A DNA stretch of 40,509 nucleotides, taken from the IMG/VR virus record IMGVR_UViG_3300010271_000004, positions 1-40,509 of that record. One strand, given 5' to 3'. This document shows, in pieces, positions 3,956 to 32,400 of the stretch; position 1 is the first letter of the stretch; every line of letters begins with the position of its first letter. The position numbers and the translations under genes are program-made. The notes beneath the pieces are model-generated. The model worked only from the letters and a program-made list of their open reading frames with translations. It was not told where the DNA came from and ran no database searches. Origin of the DNA: a virus.

Positions 3956-4546
3956 CTATAATTTTCTTATATTTGCTTTTTCTAATATGGATTGGAAGGT
4001 GCTACTGTTCCCTTCCGTACCTTTACCTTCTCTGCCCTTAGACGAGTTTCCTAGGCTTCCACCAGTTCCAGTTGGACCTGACTCACCAAATAGGTACTCG
4101 TCTGATTCTTTAAGTGCATTAATAGCAGTTTCTAAGTCTTTGTCAATATTCTTGCTGGTTTTTAACGCCTCAATATCAAGTAATGCTTTTGCAGCCTTCA
4201 CATTCTTTGCTCCGGCTTTATTAAGTGCATTCTCCAATGAATGTTCAAATTTTAAAGCTTCAATTTCTTCTTTAGCCTTTTTCTGCGCCTGTTCAAACTT
4301 AACTTTATACTCTTCAGCGGCCCTCTTAATTCCTTCAATATCCATAGTTTTATAAGATTCTATTTCTTTGTTGGCCGTCTCCAATTGCCCTTGCAAGGTT
4401 TCAATCTCTTTTTTCTTTGTTTCCAACTCCTTTTCCTTGACATCCAACTCTGTCTTAAATTTTTCAATGTCTTTACCATTCTCAGCCATTATTTTGTCTA
4501 TCTGTTCATCAGTAAGACCTAATTCTTTTAAAAATTCTCTTTTCAT
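3956..4546 (-). CDS. Scaffolding protein (GP20-like)
   Basis: MKREFLKELGLTDEQIDKIMAENGKDIEKFK... followed by a long charged coiled coil. This is a typical Firmicute phage scaffold N-terminus, and the RBS AGGAGG is strong. Confidence 0.8.
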   Translation of the reverse strand: MKREFLKELGLTDEQIDKIMAENGKDIEKFKTELDVKEKELETKKKEIETLQGQLETANKEIESYKTMDIEGIKRAAEEYKVKFEQAQKKAKEEIEALKFEHSLENALNKAGAKNVKAAKALLDIEALKTSKNIDKDLETAINALKESDEYLFGESGPTGTGGSLGNSSKGREGKGTEGNSSTFQSILEKANIRKL

Positions 4547-4559
4547 TCTGAATACCTCC

Positions 4560-4721
4560 TAATAATCTACGCTTTTTACGTGGTTGCTTCACGTGATTTG
4601 CCACTATATCGTCATGGCTTACGAAATTAAGCAGTTTAATGCCTTACTCAGGGCATAAAAATAAGACCTTAACCCTGGTCTTAAGGGAGATACTAGGATC
4701 ACCTCCTAAATTAAGCATAAT
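4560..4721 (-). promoter_or_regulatory. Structured untranslated leader upstream of the scaffold/capsid genes
   Basis: About 160 nt with no ORF. The minus strand shows four hairpins: GGAGGUG/UAUCUCC, AAGACC/GGUCUU, AUGCC/GGCAU and ACGUG/CACGU. It also carries the 12-mer AGGAGGTGATCC (4707..4696) with no start codon after it. Confidence 0.5.
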
Positions 4722-4750
4722 AAAAAGCACCTACTTTTTGTATAGGTGCT
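4722..4750 (-). terminator. Intrinsic terminator after the 62-aa ORF
   Basis: The minus strand reads AGCACCTA-tacaaaaag-TAGGTGCT followed by TTTTATTAT. Confidence 0.7.
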
Positions 4751-4754
4751 TTGA

Positions 4755-4943
4755 CTACTCTTCTTTAATTCCATACTTTTGAAGTATAGCACGTCTTTCT
4801 TCTTCTGTTGTATCAGGTTCACCTATTATATCTGTAACTCTAGCTCTAAATTTATCGTGATCAGACAAGTACTTATAAGCTATACTTCTTTGTTTACTAC
4901 TTAATTTTATAAACTCATCAAAAGGCAACTTCGTATTACTCAT
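4755..4943 (-). CDS. Small helical protein, candidate immunity partner of the MuF toxin-like tail
   Basis: The start is refined to ATG 4943 (MSNTKLPFDEF...), 6 nt after GGAGGA. The ATG overlaps the stop of the ART-like frame (GATGAGTAA). Confidence 0.55.
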   Translation of the reverse strand: MSNTKLPFDEFIKLSSKQRSIAYKYLSDHDKFRARVTDIIGEPDTTEEERRAILQKYGIKEE

Positions 4944-5178
4944 CGTATTCCTCCATAACAATATTGTATTTATCCTCATCTTTTTTAATTTCTAACACCT
5001 TGAATTTAGCACCTCTAGGATACAATACTTCTTGCTCTTCTGAATTATATTTCGAAATATCTTTCCCTTTTTTAGAGTTTATAATAAAAATTTGAACTTG
5101 TCCATAAGGATTATAAGTTTCTCCTTTTGTTGTAGATAGATACTCATTGAATATTATTATAGCTCCAACTTCATATCC
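4936..5178 (-). pseudogene. ADP-ribosyltransferase-like C-terminal domain segment in the -1 frame relative to the MuF gene (no start codon of its own)
   Basis: Conceptual translation is GYEVGAIIIFNEYLSTTKGETYNPYGQVQIFIINSKKGKDISKYNSEEQEVLYPRGAKFKVLEIKKDEDKYNIVMEEYDE. It contains an STS-type motif (LSTT) and an ExE/QxE motif (EEQEVLYPRG), as in R-S-E ADP-ribosyltransferases. The frame opens at 5178, just inside the 3' end of ORF 5157..6137. Confidence 0.6.
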
Positions 5179-6137
5179 TTATTATAACTGTCTCTGACCC
5201 CTTTGAAAGCGAAATATTCTCTGTATTTATCATACCAATCATCTAATGCCGGATTATCTTCACCATCAATCCAATCTCTCAATTCTGCAGCAACTTCATC
5301 CAAAGATTTAGATATATAAGGAACCATCGTACATAATCCATTTGGATGGTCTAACGGAACATCATTAATAGGAAATATTCTACCATCTCTATCCATACAT
5401 ATTTGACACGTCCTGCCGTGTATCATGGCCGACTGCCATTCAATCCCCTCGACAAACGGGTTCAAATTAGCGGATTTAATACTCGCAATTTGGTAAGAAT
5501 GATTTATAGCTGTTCTTGCTAATCTCTGGGCGTTATAATCAATTTTAGTATTCCTCATATTTGGGTAAACTTTACCCCAGCTCCAAGGTCTCCTTGCTGG
5601 ATCTTCAACAAATTTTTCTAAATCTCTAGCCAACTCCAATGCAGATTTCTTTTCCAAGATACCTCTACTGACCACATATTGAATATCACCTTTAAACTTA
5701 TTAGTTGCATCCCATATTCTCCTGCTTAAGGTTTTATTATCATAGTATATGCTACCTGAAATAATATCCTCTATAACACCTTTTTGCACTTGTGAGAACA
5801 TAGTTACAAAATGGTCTCCAGGATCTATTCCTGCAACATCAAATATTTGACTCATGATTAACTGTTCTGCTTCTGTGCCTAATTTAGCAGCTTTATTTAT
5901 AGATACTTTAACACTTGCATTGATTTTTTTGGCTAGTTCATTTTTCGCTTTAGTAAGTTCTTTTTGATAATCTAACACCCATCTTTTTGTAAGACTCTTA
6001 TCTTTTGCACTAGCAGCTTTACTTGCTAAATTACTAATTGCATATTCATAAAGATTTAAAATTTCCTTTTGCTGCTCCAATGTTAGCTTAGACACTTTCT
6101 TCCTAACCGCTAAAGCATATTTTACATATTCACTCAT
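5157..6137 (-). CDS. Head morphogenesis protein, SPP1 gp7 / Mu F family
   Basis: ...AQRLARTAINHSYQ...GRTCQICMDRDGRIF...LDHPNGLCTMVPY is the MuF/gp7 signature. The gene lies directly after the portal gene. Confidence 0.85.
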   Translation of the reverse strand: MSEYVKYALAVRKKVSKLTLEQQKEILNLYEYAISNLASKAASAKDKSLTKRWVLDYQKELTKAKNELAKKINASVKVSINKAAKLGTEAEQLIMSQIFDVAGIDPGDHFVTMFSQVQKGVIEDIISGSIYYDNKTLSRRIWDATNKFKGDIQYVVSRGILEKKSALELARDLEKFVEDPARRPWSWGKVYPNMRNTKIDYNAQRLARTAINHSYQIASIKSANLNPFVEGIEWQSAMIHGRTCQICMDRDGRIFPINDVPLDHPNGLCTMVPYISKSLDEVAAELRDWIDGEDNPALDDWYDKYREYFAFKGVRDSYNKDMKLEL

Positions 6138-6147
6138 AAAATATCAC

Positions 6148-7605
6148 CTACTCTTCAAGATTGTTCATTAAGTCTTGAGTGTAGGTGTCCTGTAATAACG
6201 CTTTTTCCTTCTGTATCTGCTCAAGTTCTGCATCTATATCCTCATATTCGCCCCATTTCCTCATATAAGACTGTCTACTTCTCACTTCTGCAGTAACTTC
6301 ATCCATATCAACACGTTTTTGCTCAAGCTCATCTTCAGGGATTGGATAGTATTTTTCTATGTTAAGAGTAGTCTCATATCTTGCTATCTCTCTTGCTCCG
6401 TACAGATTATATATATCCACCATCTTGAAAATGTAATCAATCATTTGTTCCAATGCAGGACCCCATTCTGCCCAATCCTCATCACATGCAGCCATCAATC
6501 CCCAGTAAAGAGCTTTCATAGATTTCCCTGACTGCATTAATCCTTTTAACTGTTCAAGTGATACGTTAGGCACATCTAGAGTATCATACATATCATTTTT
6601 TATTCTATTTACTGTATCTTCAAATTTATCTTTGTAGCTGAATTTACTTTCTAATCTCTCAACTTTAGCTTGTTTGTTAGCATTAGGATTAGATTGTTCA
6701 GTTTGCAGGTCTATCATTGCCCCTGGAGCAATTTTAATATTTTTAAGTGAATCCTCTGAGGCATCTGTGAATACATCTTGCCCAAACATCTGGAACTTAA
6801 GAGCATCTATATCATCAGAAGTTAATCTATTATAAGCATCTTGATTGGACCATAATCTTTTTACATCACTTATTCCTTCTGTTTCTCCTGTAAGACCACC
6901 ATTCTGTATTATTATGACTGGTATAAAATCTAGTCCTGTGTTATAGTCTTGATATTCTATGCTGACAATATTACCTCTGCCATCATGAGTGGATTCATTT
7001 AAAATACATCTGTCATTGACTAATTCCCATACCTGTTTTTTTATTCTTTGCTTTATCGGATCTTCTGCATTGTTCATGGCATATAAAAAGACCACTTTTT
7101 CAAGTTGGTCTACGTCATCAAGATTAAATTGCGGGAAAAACTCTATTGCAGGACTAAATATTATCCTTAATCCCACATCTTTATGCCCCCATAATTTTAT
7201 AGCAATCTTTCCGCCTATGCTGCAGTCTTTTCGTGCTTTAAGTAATTTGCTATGAAATTTGTTTTCTTTTAGGATTCTATATAATAAATCCTCTTTTGCC
7301 TGTGCTTGGTCTTGATAAGTAGTAGAGCCTTCAGCATCTTTGTTTATAGGCCTTATATCAAAATAAGGTTCTCTTCCAAACATAAAACGTGCACGTGTAT
7401 CAATTAACTTTTTGATTATATTTGTAATTTTCTTAGTAGGTTCATAGTCTAAATCCTTATTCGTTGGCCATTCTTGTTGTCCATCATAAATGGAATAACA
7501 TTTGATAATCTCACTTACCCTTGCTAATTGGTCACCATAGACTCCTTCTAATTCTGATTTCAGTAACTCATTGTAATTAACCAACTTATCTTGCCCCCTT
7601 TCCAC
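6148..7605 (-). CDS. Portal protein (SPP1 gp6-like)
   Basis: 485 aa, between terL and the MuF gene. Size and synteny fit. Confidence 0.85.
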   Translation of the reverse strand: MERGQDKLVNYNELLKSELEGVYGDQLARVSEIIKCYSIYDGQQEWPTNKDLDYEPTKKITNIIKKLIDTRARFMFGREPYFDIRPINKDAEGSTTYQDQAQAKEDLLYRILKENKFHSKLLKARKDCSIGGKIAIKLWGHKDVGLRIIFSPAIEFFPQFNLDDVDQLEKVVFLYAMNNAEDPIKQRIKKQVWELVNDRCILNESTHDGRGNIVSIEYQDYNTGLDFIPVIIIQNGGLTGETEGISDVKRLWSNQDAYNRLTSDDIDALKFQMFGQDVFTDASEDSLKNIKIAPGAMIDLQTEQSNPNANKQAKVERLESKFSYKDKFEDTVNRIKNDMYDTLDVPNVSLEQLKGLMQSGKSMKALYWGLMAACDEDWAEWGPALEQMIDYIFKMVDIYNLYGAREIARYETTLNIEKYYPIPEDELEQKRVDMDEVTAEVRSRQSYMRKWGEYEDIDAELEQIQKEKALLQDTYTQDLMNNLEE

Positions 7606-23484: not shown

Positions 23485-24012
23485 ATGACAACTTATGAGA
23501 ACATCAATGATCAAGAGCTTAAAATAGCAAAAATATTGATTCAAATATTAAATACTTCCGAAAGGGATACATCTAAAATATCATATAATCAAACAAAAAC
23601 ATATTTAAGTGTATTATTTTATAATATTCCATGTATGAGAATTAAAAATGGGAAAAAAACAAAATTTATATCAATAAAAAATTACTTAAATTACACTCTT
23701 AAACTATGTAATAATATCAATTTTGTAGTCGGTAAGGATGGTTGGAGTAGGATTGATTTAGAAAATGAAATGGATGTATTGCAATTATCCCAACCTATTT
23801 TAGAGATATATGACTATTGTTATGCAAAATCATCTGGAGAATTATTCGGATGTTGTCATCGATATGTTGAATGTTCAGATAAAAGAAAATGTATAATAGA
23901 AGACAACCCATTATCAAAAGGTTGCATTTACAGACAAAATCTTATTAATGGAAAAATCTTTTATGGGAAAAATGCGAACCACGAAAAGGTGGTATCAAAT
24001 AATGTTGTTTGA
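23485..24012 (+). CDS. Orphan Cys-rich protein (175 aa)
   Basis: RBS AAGGAGAG. I recognise no family. The C-terminal cluster is FGCCHRYVECSDKRKC...GC. The stop overlaps the start of the next gene. Confidence 0.6.
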   Translation: MTTYENINDQELKIAKILIQILNTSERDTSKISYNQTKTYLSVLFYNIPCMRIKNGKKTKFISIKNYLNYTLKLCNNINFVVGKDGWSRIDLENEMDVLQLSQPILEIYDYCYAKSSGELFGCCHRYVECSDKRKCIIEDNPLSKGCIYRQNLINGKIFYGKNANHEKVVSNNVV

Positions 24013-24937
24013 TTTCGTTGCTATAGATTTTGAAACAGCTAATTCAAATTTTAACAGTGCATGTTCTATCGGCATTGCAGCAGTATCAAATGGCAAAATT
24101 GAAAAGACGGAATACTTTTTAATTCGTCCACCATCATTACAATTTAATAATAAAAATATTGAAATTAATGGTATAACTCCTGAAGATGTTAAGGACGCAC
24201 CATTTTTTTATGAAGTTTGGGGAAAAATCAAACATTATTTTTATAATAATATAATTGTCGCACATAATGCAATATTTGATATGACAATATTAAAAACTTG
24301 TTTATTAGAATATGAAATCGATATGCCAAATTTTACTTATCTATGTAGTATGCAATTATGCAACGCTATACATTTTGACAATTGTGTTGGAAACTCATTA
24401 AAAGATAAAGCTGAGTATTTTAATATCGAACTACCAAATCATCATAATGCTTTATGTGATGCAATAACATGTGCAAAATTAGTTATAGCTCTTCTTGATG
24501 AAATAAAAAAAGGAAACTTAAAACAAACAGATTTTAATAATTATATTACGCTATATTCCTTCTCTAATGTAAAACCTCAAAAATCTTTCCAAAAAAGTCG
24601 AAGAAAAGATTTTAAAAAAGTACTCATCTCAGAAATTAGACCCTCAAGCAACAATTTTGATAGATCTAACTTCTTCTATAATAAAAATGTTGTTTTTACC
24701 GGTGAACTTAAAACGTTAGACCGTAGAGAAGCTATGCAAAAAGTTGTAGACCGTGGTGGCATAATAAAAAGCTCTGTTTCTTCTAAGACAGATTGCCTTA
24801 TAGTTGGTATACAGGATAAATCTATTGTTGGTGAAGAAGGAATGAGTACAAAACAGAAAAAAGCATATGAGTTAAAAGCAAAAGGATATAACATAAAAAT
24901 TATTTTTGAAGATGAGTTCATTGACTTATTAGGATAA
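24002..24937 (+). CDS. DnaQ-like DEDDh 3'-5' exonuclease fused to a C-terminal BRCT domain
   Basis: Exo I is AIDFET, Exo II is VAHNAIFD and Exo III is HHNALCDA. The BRCT-like part is NVVFTGELKTLDRREAMQKVVDRGGIIKSSVSSKTDCLIVG. The start is refined to ATG 24002 after AAAGGTGG. Confidence 0.75.
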   Translation: MLFDFVAIDFETANSNFNSACSIGIAAVSNGKIEKTEYFLIRPPSLQFNNKNIEINGITPEDVKDAPFFYEVWGKIKHYFYNNIIVAHNAIFDMTILKTCLLEYEIDMPNFTYLCSMQLCNAIHFDNCVGNSLKDKAEYFNIELPNHHNALCDAITCAKLVIALLDEIKKGNLKQTDFNNYITLYSFSNVKPQKSFQKSRRKDFKKVLISEIRPSSNNFDRSNFFYNKNVVFTGELKTLDRREAMQKVVDRGGIIKSSVSSKTDCLIVGIQDKSIVGEEGMSTKQKKAYELKAKGYNIKIIFEDEFIDLLG

Positions 24938-25027: not shown

Positions 25028-26125
25028 ATGAAAATCAGCAAACATGCCAGGGGGAATTACTACACCACATTCAAGGGAAAGTTCATCTACGGATCAACCC
25101 CTGAGGAAGTGAAGGAAAAATACGACGAGCTGAAATACCAATATCGGCAAGGGTACAACGTCGACAAGAACCCCACACTGGAAGACTATATGATTCTGTG
25201 GTATAACACTCATAAAAAGGGCCAGGGCGCACTGAAAACCCAGGAGATGTACCGGAACTGTATAAACAACCACATCAACCCGGCCTTAGGTCACAAACGG
25301 TTGAAGGAAATAACCGCTACCCAGGTTCAGGCGTTGCTGAACAGTATAACGAGTTCTAAAAGCCTTGCCCATAAGGTGCGGATCACCCTGAACCAAATAT
25401 TTAAGCAGGCCATGGCTGACAGGCTGGTTAATTTCAACCCGGTGCAGGCCTGCAAGGTGATAGCGCCGGACAAGCCTAAGCGCGAATTCCTTTCTGGCGC
25501 ACAAAGAGAGAAACTGCTTGAAATTCTGAAAGACAATAGGCTATATCCACTCATATACACCATGCTTTATACCGGTATGCGTCAGGGTGAAGCTCTGGCG
25601 CTCACCTGGTCTGACATTGATTTTGAAAACAAACGTATAATTGTTTCAAAAGCCATTGAATACGAAAAATCAAAGTCAAGAACCAAAGATCCAAAGACAG
25701 AAAGAGGTTTCCGGCAAATACCTATACCGGAAGAACTTGCGGAATATCTCCAGGAGTACAAAAAGAAAACCAAAAGCATATATGTATTTCCCGGCCATGC
25801 CGGAGGCTTGATGGGGCTAACGGAACTAAATAACCATTGGCGGAAGGCGCAAAAGAAAATTAAAAAATGGTTTGAAAACAACCCAGATGCCGGCATCGAA
25901 CCTTTCAATCTTACCTGCAGGTTACTACGTCACACATATTGCACCGGTCTGTTTGATGCAGAGATAGACGAAGTTTCCGCAGCCGAAATAATGGGGCACG
26001 ATGTTAGTATCATGCGGGAGGTTTATACTCACATTTCAGATGAAAGAAAAAAGGCAACTGTTGAAAAAATTGAAGCGTTGTATAAGACAAAAAAGCAATC
26101 AAAAAAAGAGGCAGCGTCAAAATAA
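25028..26125 (+). CDS. int: Tyrosine integrase
   Basis: ...TGMRQGEALALTWSDID..., ...LLRHTYCTGL... and ...GHDVSIMREVYTH match the R...HxxR...Y catalytic pattern of phage integrases. Confidence 0.9.
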   Translation: MKISKHARGNYYTTFKGKFIYGSTPEEVKEKYDELKYQYRQGYNVDKNPTLEDYMILWYNTHKKGQGALKTQEMYRNCINNHINPALGHKRLKEITATQVQALLNSITSSKSLAHKVRITLNQIFKQAMADRLVNFNPVQACKVIAPDKPKREFLSGAQREKLLEILKDNRLYPLIYTMLYTGMRQGEALALTWSDIDFENKRIIVSKAIEYEKSKSRTKDPKTERGFRQIPIPEELAEYLQEYKKKTKSIYVFPGHAGGLMGLTELNNHWRKAQKKIKKWFENNPDAGIEPFNLTCRLLRHTYCTGLFDAEIDEVSAAEIMGHDVSIMREVYTHISDERKKATVEKIEALYKTKKQSKKEAASK

Positions 26126-29016: not shown

Positions 29017-32000
29017 TTAACCACACAATATATTACTCGTTATAAAGTCTATTCCGTTTGTTTCTAATGTTTTTGCTGTATTAAAATTATCAACTGTCCA
29101 TGTGTTAATTAAAATACCATTACTATGGCATAACTCTATATTTTCTTTTGTTGCTGATGTGTAATAAGTATCCATCATTGCATTACCAAGCGATTTTACA
29201 AAATTTAAATCATCTATTGTCATAGAAGATGTTACAAGCTGTAATACTATTTTTTTACTTCTATTTCTAACCTCTGTTAATGCTGTTCTGTTAAAAGAAA
29301 TAATAATAGCCTTAGTTTCAAAGTCTAACTTTTTCAAAAGATTTATTAGCGAATCATAGTCTGATGTGTTATTTGCTGCTTTAATTCCTATGACAGGAAC
29401 CATACCCCATTTTTTACATACATATAAATATTCTTCCAAAGTCGGTATTTTCAGATTTGGATAAAGTGAAATATTGTTACCCGCATCTATTGTTAAACTT
29501 TTTAATTCTGCAAGTGTTTTATCTGATACTTTACCAGTTCCATTTGTCATTCTATCTACTGTGTCATCATGGTGTAATACCCAAACTCCATCTTTTGAAG
29601 TATAAATATCACATTCGACCCCCCAAAATCCTAATTCTCCAGCTAATTCATATGAAGGTAAAGTATTTTCTGGTGCTATTAAACTTGCACCCCTATGACC
29701 TATATATTTAACTTTACCTATTGGATTTTGGCTTTGAACATAATTCACACTATCTGCCAAGTCCGCAGTAACATTATCAATTCTATTACTATTACTCTGA
29801 ACTCTCAAATCTACATTATCAACCTTATTCTGTATTTCACTCTTAGCCTTGACTAAATCTTCTAATGTTGTACGACTGTTTAAAGGTGCCTTAATACTAA
29901 CCGTGGGCTGTGTACTATCTTTAGTTGTTTTGTATGCGTACCAAATCAAGTCTCCCTCAACTGCATATGTACTGGTAAAACCAAGTCCATCTGCTGCAAC
30001 TGTACACGTATCAGTTATATCAATTTCATAACCTGTTTCTTTATCAGTCCATATGACTGTTTCTAGTTTCTGTATCGGATTGTTTATATCAGCTATTTGT
30101 ATGCCGTTTACCTCGTCATAGAAATCAAAGTCATGTACGATACCTGTTTCAACGATTATTGTACCATTTGGATAGCTGTCAAGGTGTCCGACAACAGTTG
30201 CAGGCCGCACAACGGGATTCAATAATTGATAATTTAACGAAGTTGTACCAAGCCCTGTCCTTGCTGCTGATATATCAGCATAAGTACCTTTATCAACAAT
30301 AATCCATAGAGTTTTATCTGTATGCCAATAATACTTACCTACGCTTGTTTCAAGGTCAATATCAGCCTGTGCTACTTCTATAAGCTCTATACCGTTTTTA
30401 TCATAGTATCTTGTCATGCCATCTGCGGCTGTTGTCCCTGCTTTCGCATCTGAAAATGCTGTAGTTTTAATAACATCTACATTAGTATAAGTTGTAGTAT
30501 CAATACTGTCATAAACAGTATCGCTTATTGCAGTATCATCACTAACATTTTGCTTATGGCAATACTTGCCATTAGCATCTGCGTATAATTCATCTTTAGT
30601 GCCGTTTGGCAATGAACGCATTGGCAGGATGTTTCCGTTTTCGTCTGTGGCTTTGGTGTACATGCTACCGCCAACACCGTATTCGGAATATTCTACATCT
30701 TGATTACCTTCTGTAATCATAAGTGTATCAAGTTGTATACGAACACGATAAGGTGCACTTCCATATGACAAAAAGATGTAATCTATTGATTTTCCTGCCG
30801 TACTATTAGATTTATTTGTTTGATAAGTTGTGCTATTTACTCTACCTAAAATAGAAATGCTTCCGTCCGTGTATTTAACAACAAAATGCGCAGTACTTCC
30901 AGTCACTCTCCATGTAATGTTGAATCTGTACTGTGTATTAGGCTTGAACATTCCTTTCATAAAAGGTTTATCATGTAATCTGTGGATTGTATATTCTATC
31001 ACTTCATGTCCGTTTTCTGTTGTAACATAAGCAGTATTATCATACGTTTTAACATAAGTAATAAAATCTTTTTTGTTAAATAAATTAACCGTACTTGTCA
31101 ACCTTAATGCGCCAAGTGTAGATTTAGTGCCGTCAAAATAATAAGGAAACATTTTAATCAATTCATCATCTGTTTTATTTTCAAGACTGTTTTCTGTGAT
31201 ATCTATAAGAAAAATATTATCAAAGTAATATTTTACACCAGTACCCGTATAAGAACCTACTTTACCGTAAAGTCTAATAAGCATAGCAGGTTCAGAATAT
31301 ACAGTTGATATTGTACATTTAACACATGACAAACCTGCTCCAGTAACATAATTCCCATGTTGAGCATAATAATCTCCATTAGCCTCTTTATTGAAAATTG
31401 ATATTCTGCCACCATTTTTTACAGATGTGATTGCAAAATATGTATGACCTACAATTGGTTTAAAATATGTTTGTTGTACATAATGCTCTGACGTAACTGT
31501 GTTTTCCGTAAATTCTAATTGTCCATTAATAACTGCAATACTACCTTGTGAGGCTAACCAACCTGTAGAATCATTTTCAAAACTGCCATTTTGTATTAAA
31601 TTAGTTATTGTATTCCCTTTAATACTTTCTACGCTAATTTGTCCTTTCTCAACGGTAGAAGGGAAACTGTGGATTGACGATGTGAATTCTTCTGTGAGGT
31701 ATGCATGATTGAATACTTCTTCTTCTATTTCTTCAAGCCTGTCTGTAGCTTGTGGGAATGACTTACCTCTTGCTATAGATGTTCTCATATTTATTACTTC
31801 TGCTTCTTCCTGTTGTGCTGTGGAAAGATTATCCCACATTGTTTGTATGTTTTCTCTTGCATTATTAGCATTATCTGCTGCTGTCTGTGCTTCTGTTGCT
31901 TTTTCTTCTGCCAATTGTGCTTTTTGATTGGCATTACTTGCAGCTTGGTTAGTGTCACTTATTGCTGTTGCTGTTTTTTGTATTAAGTCTGTTAGGATGG

Positions 32001-32400
32001 GATAATTAGTATCTGATACTACACCATCTCCACTGTCAAGTGCATCTCTAACTTTAAATGTAAAGTTTACACTTGTTAACCTCTCACCATCAGAGCCATA
32101 AAATTGTAATTCTGCTACAACAGTGCCAGGTACGGATATTTCGGTTGTTTTAACAAGATATGATACTTTACCGTTTGCTGCATCATCAATTGTGCATTCA
32201 GAATAAACAGGTTGCCCATCTTTTCTCTTAAATACAATAGATATTAAGCTGATATCAGATAAATCGTAAGGCTTTCTTTTTTCAACAATAGAAAAATCAA
32301 ATAGATATGCTTTAGTATCGTTGCTGACTAATACATAATCCTTGTGTTCTGTAGTATGGTCATACAAATCTATAGTAATCGGTAGTATTTTAGGTTGCAT
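29017..32400 (-). CDS. Large tail fibre/baseplate protein: BppU-like N-terminus, coiled coil, CBM-like region and C-terminal glycerophosphodiester phosphodiesterase (GDPD)
   Basis: The N-terminus MQPKILPITIDLYD...GTVVAELQFY fits BppU_N. The C-terminus YIGHRGASLIAPENTLPSYELA...WGVECDIYTSKDGVWVLHHDDTVDR carries the GDPD signature (HRG...EN...E.D...H.D). Confidence 0.8.
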   Translation of the reverse strand: MQPKILPITIDLYDHTTEHKDYVLVSNDTKAYLFDFSIVEKRKPYDLSDISLISIVFKRKDGQPVYSECTIDDAANGKVSYLVKTTEISVPGTVVAELQFYGSDGERLTSVNFTFKVRDALDSGDGVVSDTNYPILTDLIQKTATAISDTNQAASNANQKAQLAEEKATEAQTAADNANNARENIQTMWDNLSTAQQEEAEVINMRTSIARGKSFPQATDRLEEIEEEVFNHAYLTEEFTSSIHSFPSTVEKGQISVESIKGNTITNLIQNGSFENDSTGWLASQGSIAVINGQLEFTENTVTSEHYVQQTYFKPIVGHTYFAITSVKNGGRISIFNKEANGDYYAQHGNYVTGAGLSCVKCTISTVYSEPAMLIRLYGKVGSYTGTGVKYYFDNIFLIDITENSLENKTDDELIKMFPYYFDGTKSTLGALRLTSTVNLFNKKDFITYVKTYDNTAYVTTENGHEVIEYTIHRLHDKPFMKGMFKPNTQYRFNITWRVTGSTAHFVVKYTDGSISILGRVNSTTYQTNKSNSTAGKSIDYIFLSYGSAPYRVRIQLDTLMITEGNQDVEYSEYGVGGSMYTKATDENGNILPMRSLPNGTKDELYADANGKYCHKQNVSDDTAISDTVYDSIDTTTYTNVDVIKTTAFSDAKAGTTAADGMTRYYDKNGIELIEVAQADIDLETSVGKYYWHTDKTLWIIVDKGTYADISAARTGLGTTSLNYQLLNPVVRPATVVGHLDSYPNGTIIVETGIVHDFDFYDEVNGIQIADINNPIQKLETVIWTDKETGYEIDITDTCTVAADGLGFTSTYAVEGDLIWYAYKTTKDSTQPTVSIKAPLNSRTTLEDLVKAKSEIQNKVDNVDLRVQSNSNRIDNVTADLADSVNYVQSQNPIGKVKYIGHRGASLIAPENTLPSYELAGELGFWGVECDIYTSKDGVWVLHHDDTVDRMTNGTGKVSDKTLAELKSLTIDAGNNISLYPNLKIPTLEEYLYVCKKWGMVPVIGIKAANNTSDYDSLINLLKKLDFETKAIIISFNRTALTEVRNRSKKIVLQLVTSSMTIDDLNFVKSLGNAMMDTYYTSATKENIELCHSNGILINTWTVDNFNTAKTLETNGIDFITSNILCG

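Follow-up and report, generated by a model that had tools for sequence, protein, structure and literature searches.

Polymorphic toxins borne by the MuF head proteins of temperate phages are an established class, which includes an ADP-ribosyltransferase (ART) subclass with EFV from E. faecalis V583 as an example (Jamet et al. 2017, PMC5576092). Within it, the toxins are restricted to temperate phages, and the small open reading frame (ORF) that comes after the MuF toxin is the expected immunity gene (PMC5576092). In the case of Bxa (a MuF-ART of a Bacteroides stercoris prophage), the small adjacent gene encodes Bsi, a binding-type immunity protein that blocks toxicity, and additional immunity genes that lack a toxin have been proposed to occur in loci of the Bxa type (PMC11699363). 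Here we analysed a stretch of viral DNA of 40,509 nucleotides (IMG/VR record IMGVR_UViG_3300010271_000004, positions 1 to 40,509; hereafter the window), and we consider it very probable that it carries a decayed (pseudogenised) MuF-ART polymorphic toxin module of a temperate siphophage, in which the putative immunity gene has been kept. Such decay would be an ordinary loss in an already known toxin class, of which the window holds a decayed member.

The window is that of a temperate siphophage, with a gene row composed of terminase, portal, MuF, scaffold and capsid, together with genes for replication (PolA, VapE, SNF2), an amidase lysin and an integrase, the last in keeping with the report that MuF toxins are confined to temperate phages (PMC5576092). 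The integrase and the elements of the module are located as follows:

25028..26125: tyrosine integrase (PF00589, 1.5e-21)
6137..5157, minus strand: gene for a MuF/SPP1-gp7-like minor head protein of 326 aa (phrog_1657, Pfam Phage_Mu_F, TIGR01641)
5178..5181, minus strand: junction of a 266-bp deletion, where GTTATAATAA meets GGATATGAAG (BLAST and manual alignment against contig L003, which holds the intact copy)
5178..4936, minus strand: 80 codons and TAA from the C-terminal half of a toxin domain of R-S-E ADP-ribosyltransferase type (PF03496, phrog_25063)
4943..4755, minus strand: 62-aa ORF for a putative non-enzymatic immunity (antitoxin) protein (position, linkage to ARTs)
4714..4752, minus strand: intrinsic terminator, end of the portal-MuF-(ART)-immunity transcription unit (11-bp stem and T-run)

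The MuF gene, which is flanked by an SPP1-type portal gene upstream (6148..7605) and a scaffold gene downstream (3956..4546), was assigned to the head morphogenesis family phrog_1657 (1.1e-80) and matched TIGR01641 (6.9e-7), Pfam Phage_Mu_F (PF04233; E 6.7e-6, 27.3 bits, under the gathering cut-off of 29.6) and the MuF part (positions 34-334) of phrog_595, a family of MuF-ART fusions. The encoded protein ends in ...FAFKGVRDSYNKDMKLEL, with the stop at 5157; residues 1-319 are native and comprise the MuF core and 9 linker residues (...FAFKGVRDSYN), and the last 7 residues (KDMKLEL) are ART codons past the deletion junction that are read out of frame. A homologue search with this protein retrieved the exact 326-aa form (P0002), and revealed that most of its relatives are toxin-less proteins of 314 aa (C-terminus ...YFAFKKI) and that a minority of 491-493 aa carries PF03496. 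The in-frame MuF-ART fusion, absent in the window, is present in the relatives P0028, P0007, P0008 and P0015. The truncated 326-aa protein is presumably a functional head protein without a toxin, like the 314-aa majority of its relatives, and we infer that it retains full function in head assembly.

The remainder of the toxin domain is found in the -1 frame, which stays open between GGA at 5178 and TAA at 4938..4936 and translates as GYEVGAIIIFNEYLSTTKGETYNPYGQVQIFIINSKKGKDISKYNSEEQEVLYPRGAKFKVLEIKKDEDKYNIVMEEYDE (with the pieces GYEVGAIIIFNEYLSTTKG...SEEQEVLYPRGAKFKV...MEEYDE). A search of the 80 codons for ATG, GTG or TTG yielded none, and the frame has no ribosome-binding site of its own; the description given in the earlier note (a MuF/gp7 ORF with an ART tail displaced into the -1 frame and devoid of a start) was thus confirmed in all its features. 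The openness of this frame is beyond what is expected by chance, since only 3 of 20,000 shuffles of the segment remained open, and none of the 1,312 off-frame stretches taken from 11 long genes (in a window of 35% GC) reached 80 codons, the longest having 61. The 80-aa translation exceeded the cut-off of Pfam ADPrib_exo_Tox (PF03496; E 9.9e-6, 25.5 bits, cut-off 23.4), with the match limited to profile positions 110-191 of 196, and was further assigned to phrog_25063 (a 79-aa family; 1.7e-26) and to the extreme C-terminus of phrog_595 (positions 435-512 of 513), which leaves about 100 residues of the latter family unaccounted for between the MuF match and the remnant match. The profile search that had been suggested as a check of this segment therefore returned an ART match (in both Pfam and PHROGs) that is partial. 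In line with the hallmark motifs proposed beforehand and with the C-terminal half of the profile, the S-T-S motif is present as YLSTTKG (aligned to the STT of the family and the MSTS of Tre1), and the (Q/E)-x-E motif as SEEQEVLYPRG (EQE; aligned to the E-A-E-VLYP of Tre1), with both Glu invariant across the ART family.

The window therefore offers half a domain that lacks a start, and not a complete ART domain as one translatable unit; the remnant is untranslated, and would lack catalytic activity even if translated. It shares 97.5% identity with the C-terminal half of P0028 (2 amino-acid differences), and this similarity, together with its freedom from stop codons, fits a recent event and equally fits selection for retention. 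Two possible routes to its translation were considered and rejected: initiation at a rare ATA/ATT after the GGAG at 5165..5162, and reinitiation after the MuF stop. A canonical start is lacking, the sole downstream ATG near enough (5146) belongs to the MuF frame and begins an ORF of about 22 codons, and either route would yield half a domain.

The displacement of the frame was caused by a 266-bp deletion, and not by recoding or by an assembly error. BLAST and manual alignment placed window 5816..5179 on L003 142..779 and window 5187..4716 on L003 1037..1507, so that the window is missing L003 bases 780-1045 (266 bp; 266 mod 3 = 2), and a 2-nt AA microhomology at 5180..5179 leaves the exact breakpoint ambiguous (the sequence spanning the junction is GTTATAATAAGGATATGAAG). 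The identity of the window to L003 and L004 is 95.8% to the left of the gap and 98.3% to its right, and the protein encoded by these two contigs (P0028, 98% identical) has its ART domain in frame. The left flank leads into the linker that the intact copy also has (GVRDSYN), the -1 frame opens with the base immediately past the junction, and the TAA that closes this frame upstream originates from the left flank. The 88 missing codons encode NVNITNMFFGEKAKNSTINAQDVGYINKYISSESYIINEGLRNKTGLSKEHMDIVNGLDIALSKISNYEGNLSRSLYFYSEEDIDKFLK; with them the deletion takes the end of the linker, the N-terminal helices and the strand with the catalytic Arg, and a search for the deleted N-terminal ART half elsewhere in the window did not find it. 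Out of the causes listed in the earlier note (a recent inactivating indel, an assembly or sequencing error, or an unconventional recoding event), the inactivating indel stands, as an internal deletion with respect to L003 that exceeds the size of a small indel and was located by the alignment with related MuF genes that the note had recommended, and the other two fall.

By sequence alignment, L003 shows what the uninterrupted sequence is, and the more distant full-length phage genes of P0007, P0008 and P0015 agree with it. Neither L003 nor L004 is the parental phage, as what they carry is a MuF-ART-immunity module truncated at its 5' end and set between unrelated flanks on a 1.6-kb contig: the homology of L003 to the window begins at about MuF residue 110 and ends just past the module terminator (4716), and upstream of it L003 has stops in all frames, the end of an unrelated gene and a terminator. 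Since the two contigs carry a truncated module in another context, the direct ancestor of the window was not observed.

Could the real phage possess an intact MuF-ART, with the 266-bp gap or the frame shift introduced erroneously during sequencing or assembly? Several contigs with the deleted allele (L007-L010) break soon after the junction, and the intact-type contigs are all of about 1.6 kb, both of which hint at graph branching. We nevertheless regard such an artefact as highly improbable, given that the exact 326-aa allele (P0002) was found on 11 contigs that derive from several runs and assemblers (sources include SRR6179423, SRR6179404, ERZ795097, ERZ27245373, ERZ27245383 and JGI 3300010265) and from different pipelines (Logan, MGnify/MEGAHIT, metaSPAdes-style NODE and JGI). 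All six contigs that were fetched with this allele are 100% identical to the window in the overlap, and two long ones (L005 and L006, of 20 and 24.6 kb) go straight through the junction, the longest contig recorded for P0002 being of 47 kb. Moreover, a clean loss of 266 bp is atypical of errors, and the intact copy, because its flanks differ, represents another locus rather than a correct assembly of this one.

A programmed -1 (or +2) ribosomal frameshift within 5178..5160, which would fuse MuF to the ART in some translation events, is less credible still and can be considered effectively refuted. It is suggested by the geometry alone (a frame overlap of 7 codons followed by a frame that lacks a start), and is contradicted by the exact coincidence of the frame boundary with the deletion junction and by an overlap that contains neither an X_XXY_YYZ heptamer nor a homopolymer; as the earlier note had remarked for the overlap, no such heptamer exists in 5200..5150, the nearest ones being at 5565 and 6060. 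Furthermore, the fusion product would possess neither the N-terminal half of the fold nor the invariant catalytic Arg, and every relative examined has its main ART in frame. None of these (about 32 loci) shows a two-frame arrangement of MuF and ART: the N- and C-halves of the main ART share one frame in L011, in L012 and in the 30 IMG/VR loci (retrieved by a scan that used aligned ART C-terminal halves), and they also share it with MuF wherever MuF was detectable.

The family picture was obtained from tblastn against phages and from the alignment-driven scan of IMG/VR, as the word-indexed homologue searches returned 1 match for the 80-aa remnant and 3 for the 62-aa ORF. A megablast of the region against GenBank phages gave no near-identical match, the genome contig collection yielded nothing in a scan with the MuF protein and in an exact 32-mer scan, and the junction 30-mer had no match in IMG/VR; in the JGI metagenomes, a 32-mer common to both alleles recovered no contig other than L004.

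In the ART family, the Pfam profile is covered from about position 13 to 191 in the MuF-ART proteins of P0028, P0015 and phiCD24-1, as compared to 110-191 in the window. An alignment of 19 family sequences revealed an invariant R in GxLxRSL (Y-E-G-x-L-x-R-S-L), as well as invariant Y, N, L and R in an N-terminal helix (SYxINExLR). The PDB profile search placed the family closest to the antibacterial type VI secretion system (T6SS) ART Tre1 (6DRH/6DRE; E 1e-14 over the whole domain), with SpvB, Vis and ExoT scoring below it, and in a pairwise alignment the NLSRS of the family stands opposite the ETYRG Arg motif of Tre1. Because the AlphaFold2 prediction of P0028 (from a 5-sequence alignment) was unusable (mean pLDDT 38, pTM 0.27), the lost elements were mapped by sequence alignment to Tre1. 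The Arg motif of P0028 (GNLSRSLYF) lies inside the deleted 266 bp, and the window has no copy of this motif (beta-1, NAD binding) in the remnant or elsewhere. The stretch FAFKGVRDS, put forward in the earlier note as the only candidate for the Arg motif, turned out to be the MuF C-terminus and linker, and is not the motif since the true one belongs to the deleted 88 residues. In the same way, the idea that the fusion could be repaired conceptually by correcting the frame does not hold: with the Arg motif and the N-terminal helices removed by the deletion, frame correction cannot restore the ART, and the resulting fusion, short of 88 residues that include the Arg, would still be catalytically dead. 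This calls for caution in annotation, as frame repair would give a false 'ART-fused MuF' without a catalytic Arg.

What follows the remnant appears to have been spared. The ATG of the 62-aa ORF (4943..4941, within GATGAGTAA) overlaps the stop of the ART frame and is preceded, at a distance of 6 nt, by the ribosome-binding site GGAGGA (4954..4949), and the strong terminator beyond the ORF, at 4752..4724, is made of an 11-bp stem (AAAGCACCTA...TAGGTGCTTT) and then a T-run. As both its own ribosome-binding site and the terminator were kept, the putative immunity gene is probably still expressed. In L003 (98% identical), L012 (64 aa, 66%), L011 (74 aa), L015 (89 aa) and phiCD24-1 (71 aa, in an orphan module), a homologue of the 62-aa ORF comes directly after an ART or overlaps the ART stop, and a related form of 56-58 aa sits after other members of the ART family; a C-terminal acidic segment that contains TEEER is common to all forms of the small ORF. 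Of the 30 IMG/VR loci taken together with L011 and L012, most have such a homologue directly after the ART, and downstream of the toxin-less 314-aa MuF of L013 there is an unrelated gene and no homologue of the 62-aa ORF. Searches of Pfam, NCBIfam and PHROG assigned the 62-aa protein to no family. Since its homologues directly follow ARTs of the same family, an immunity role is plausible for the 62-aa ORF, and the toxin-immunity layout anticipated in the earlier note is found here both in the overlapping ATG and in the homologues that follow ARTs. The trend of decay in the window is the same in L014 (toxin broken, immunity gene kept), where a 5'-truncated MuF-ART with two in-frame stops is accompanied by an immunity gene identical to that of the intact L036. 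The putative immunity protein may protect lysogens or infected cells from the ARTs of related phages, or may simply not have decayed yet.

A different significance for the remnant is raised by C. difficile phages and prophages (phiCD24-1, phiCDKH01, and the prophages L017-L023, L025 and L028), in which a full MuF-ART with its immunity gene is followed by an orphan module. The order of the array is a 472-aa MuF-ART, a 58-aa immunity gene, a 79-aa ART C-terminal half, a 71-aa immunity gene and a 58-aa paralogue; the 79-aa start-poor half corresponds to phrog_25063, and the extra block is partly or wholly missing in some related prophages. On the assumption that an ART C-terminal half and its immunity gene are selected as a silent start-less module, recombination into a co-infecting MuF-ART would switch the C-terminal half of the toxin together with the immunity specificity, in the manner of orphan CdiA-CT/CdiI or Rhs-CT. 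We judge this explanation unlikely for the window, and similarly doubtful is the more general notion that the ART C-terminal half (from STS to ExE, with the target- and immunity-contacting loop) and the immunity gene form a swappable sub-domain cassette that is kept silent. In their favour are the C. difficile loci that have, besides the full pair, a start-poor ART half with its own immunity gene, the variable presence of this block between related prophages, the 5' limit of the C. difficile orphan (within about 5 codons of the window junction) and the lack of stop codons in the window remnant. The window shares with such cassettes a start-less toxin fragment that is followed by an intact, putatively cognate immunity gene; however, it has no intact main ART with which to recombine, and the position downstream of a full-length toxin-immunity pair, seen in phages of the phiCD24-1 type, does not occur in it. 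Moreover, its junction is an out-of-frame illegitimate deletion inside a contiguous gene, with a left flank that leads into the linker (GVRDSYN) of the intact copy, two similar boundaries within about 150 codons would arise by chance at roughly p = 0.07, and the low divergence from P0028 is accounted for by recency. For the window itself, the out-of-frame junction and the missing intact ART argue for plain decay. Were the cassette notion true, MuF-ART phages would exchange toxin and immunity specificity by recombining close to the conserved GYEVG boundary, and the window remnant would be a maintained reservoir and not junk.

Under the preferred reading of plain decay, the ancestor would have encoded a protein of about 490 aa, in which a linker joined an N-terminal MuF/gp7 domain, for incorporation into the head, to a Tre1-like R-S-E ART at the C-terminus; the toxin stop would have been overlapped by the start of a small immunity gene downstream. 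A 266-bp deletion (with about 2 nt of microhomology) would then have removed 88 codons and shifted the frame, such that MuF now ends 7 codons past the junction, the 80-codon ART half is stranded in the -1 frame, and the immunity gene is left with its own ribosome-binding site and terminator. So understood, the locus provides a nucleotide-resolved example of the loss of a phage head-borne (MuF) toxin with retention of the antidote gene, and it fits the proposal that MuF loci gather immunity genes without a cognate toxin. Furthermore, the small proteins of about 56-89 aa that follow Tre1-like phage ARTs constitute an uncharacterised family, absent from Pfam and NCBIfam, in which a new binding-type ART inhibitor may reasonably be sought.

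Compared with Tre1-Tri1 of Serratia proteamaculans (6DRE/6DRH), the ART family represented in the window aligns in the R, S-T-S and E-x-E motifs, and what the window itself keeps of the domain is the STS-to-ExE part alone. Tre1 is delivered by a T6SS PAAR protein, whereas here the vehicle is the phage head, and the immunity protein Tri1 is a large, occluding hydrolase of the DraG-like type, whereas the small ORF described here has about 60 aa. With Bxa-Bsi-BAH the locus has in common a MuF protein with a C-terminal ART (antibacterial in Bxa) and a small adjacent gene (whose immunity function in the window is inferred); the MuF and ART lineages differ (the match to phrog_16625 is weak), the window is without an ADP-ribosylhydrolase immunity gene, and for the 62-aa protein no resemblance to any described immunity family was detected. 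The orphan CT-immunity modules of CDI and Rhs systems are resembled in the succession of a start-less toxin fragment and an intact immunity gene, and an arrangement of exactly this kind comes after a full toxin-immunity pair in the C. difficile phage relatives; in the window, by contrast, the fragment stems from an internal deletion of the main gene, and no full-length toxin lies upstream. The closest agreement is with the MuF-ART toxins of temperate phages (PMC5576092), with which the window, itself of a temperate phage, shares a MuF/gp7 domain right after the portal gene, a toxin domain of the ART class and a small ORF downstream; it departs from them in that the toxin domain is no longer fused in frame, its N-terminal half being deleted and the rest out of frame. 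Because the deletion both unfused and halved the toxin domain, we regard the window as a pseudogenised member of this class.

The module in which the ADP-ribosyltransferase (ART) domain is in frame with MuF and is followed by the immunity gene (locus L003, from ENA ERZ27245379, and as L004 from JGI 3300010276) shares 96-98% identity with the window. The L003 module is truncated at its 5' end, at MuF residue ~110, and is bordered on both sides (1-141 and 1508-1643) by unrelated sequences, the left flank carrying a terminator and the end of a different gene, and the right one consisting of DNA rich in hairpins. Every assembly of this type of module is a contig of ~1.6 kb.

A further case of a decayed toxin with a retained immunity gene is provided by L014 (MT837966, an UNVERIFIED human gut phage scaffold; 151-1029), in which a 5'-truncated MuF-ART gene, adjoined by a tyrosine recombinase gene, bears two in-frame stop codons in the N-terminal half of the ART, and is followed by a 56-aa ORF identical to that of its intact relative L036. 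Together with L036 and L038-L040, L014 forms a sub-clade of the window's ART family in which the S-T-S/STT motif is replaced by AAT(C) (NEYIAATCG), and the Arg and EQE motifs are retained. The same family also occurs devoid of MuF: in L015 (ENA ERZ17292903, 439-1199), a stand-alone ART of 163 aa precedes a homologue of the immunity ORF (89 aa), and the pair is neighboured by chromosomal-type genes (esterase, CMD, flavodoxin-like).

Elsewhere in the window, two further genes were annotated:

29017-32400, minus strand: tail protein of 1,127 aa with an N-terminal BppU baseplate domain and a C-terminal glycerophosphodiester phosphodiesterase (GDPD) domain
23948-24937, plus strand: DnaQ-like 3'-5' exonuclease fused to a BRCT domain, adjoining the integrase

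The combination of BppU and GDPD domains suggests that the former is a putative receptor-binding protein that degrades teichoic acid; the DnaQ-BRCT gene lies on the strand opposite to the structural genes.

An extra ART/immunity block was observed in phiCD24-1 (L001, LN681534; 3790-4659). In C. difficile phages and prophages, the full MuF-ART gene and the immunity gene after it (58 aa) are succeeded by the C-terminal half of an ART, an orphan of 79 aa (phrog_25063), then by an immunity gene of 71 aa and by a third immunity paralogue (58 aa). The term 'orphan' is absent from the text of PMC5576092, the paper on MuF toxins. These phages and prophages are L001, L002, L017-L025 and L028, among which L024 lacks the entire extra block, and L025 and L028 the third immunity gene. 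Similar terminator-like sequences are found on both sides of the C. difficile block.
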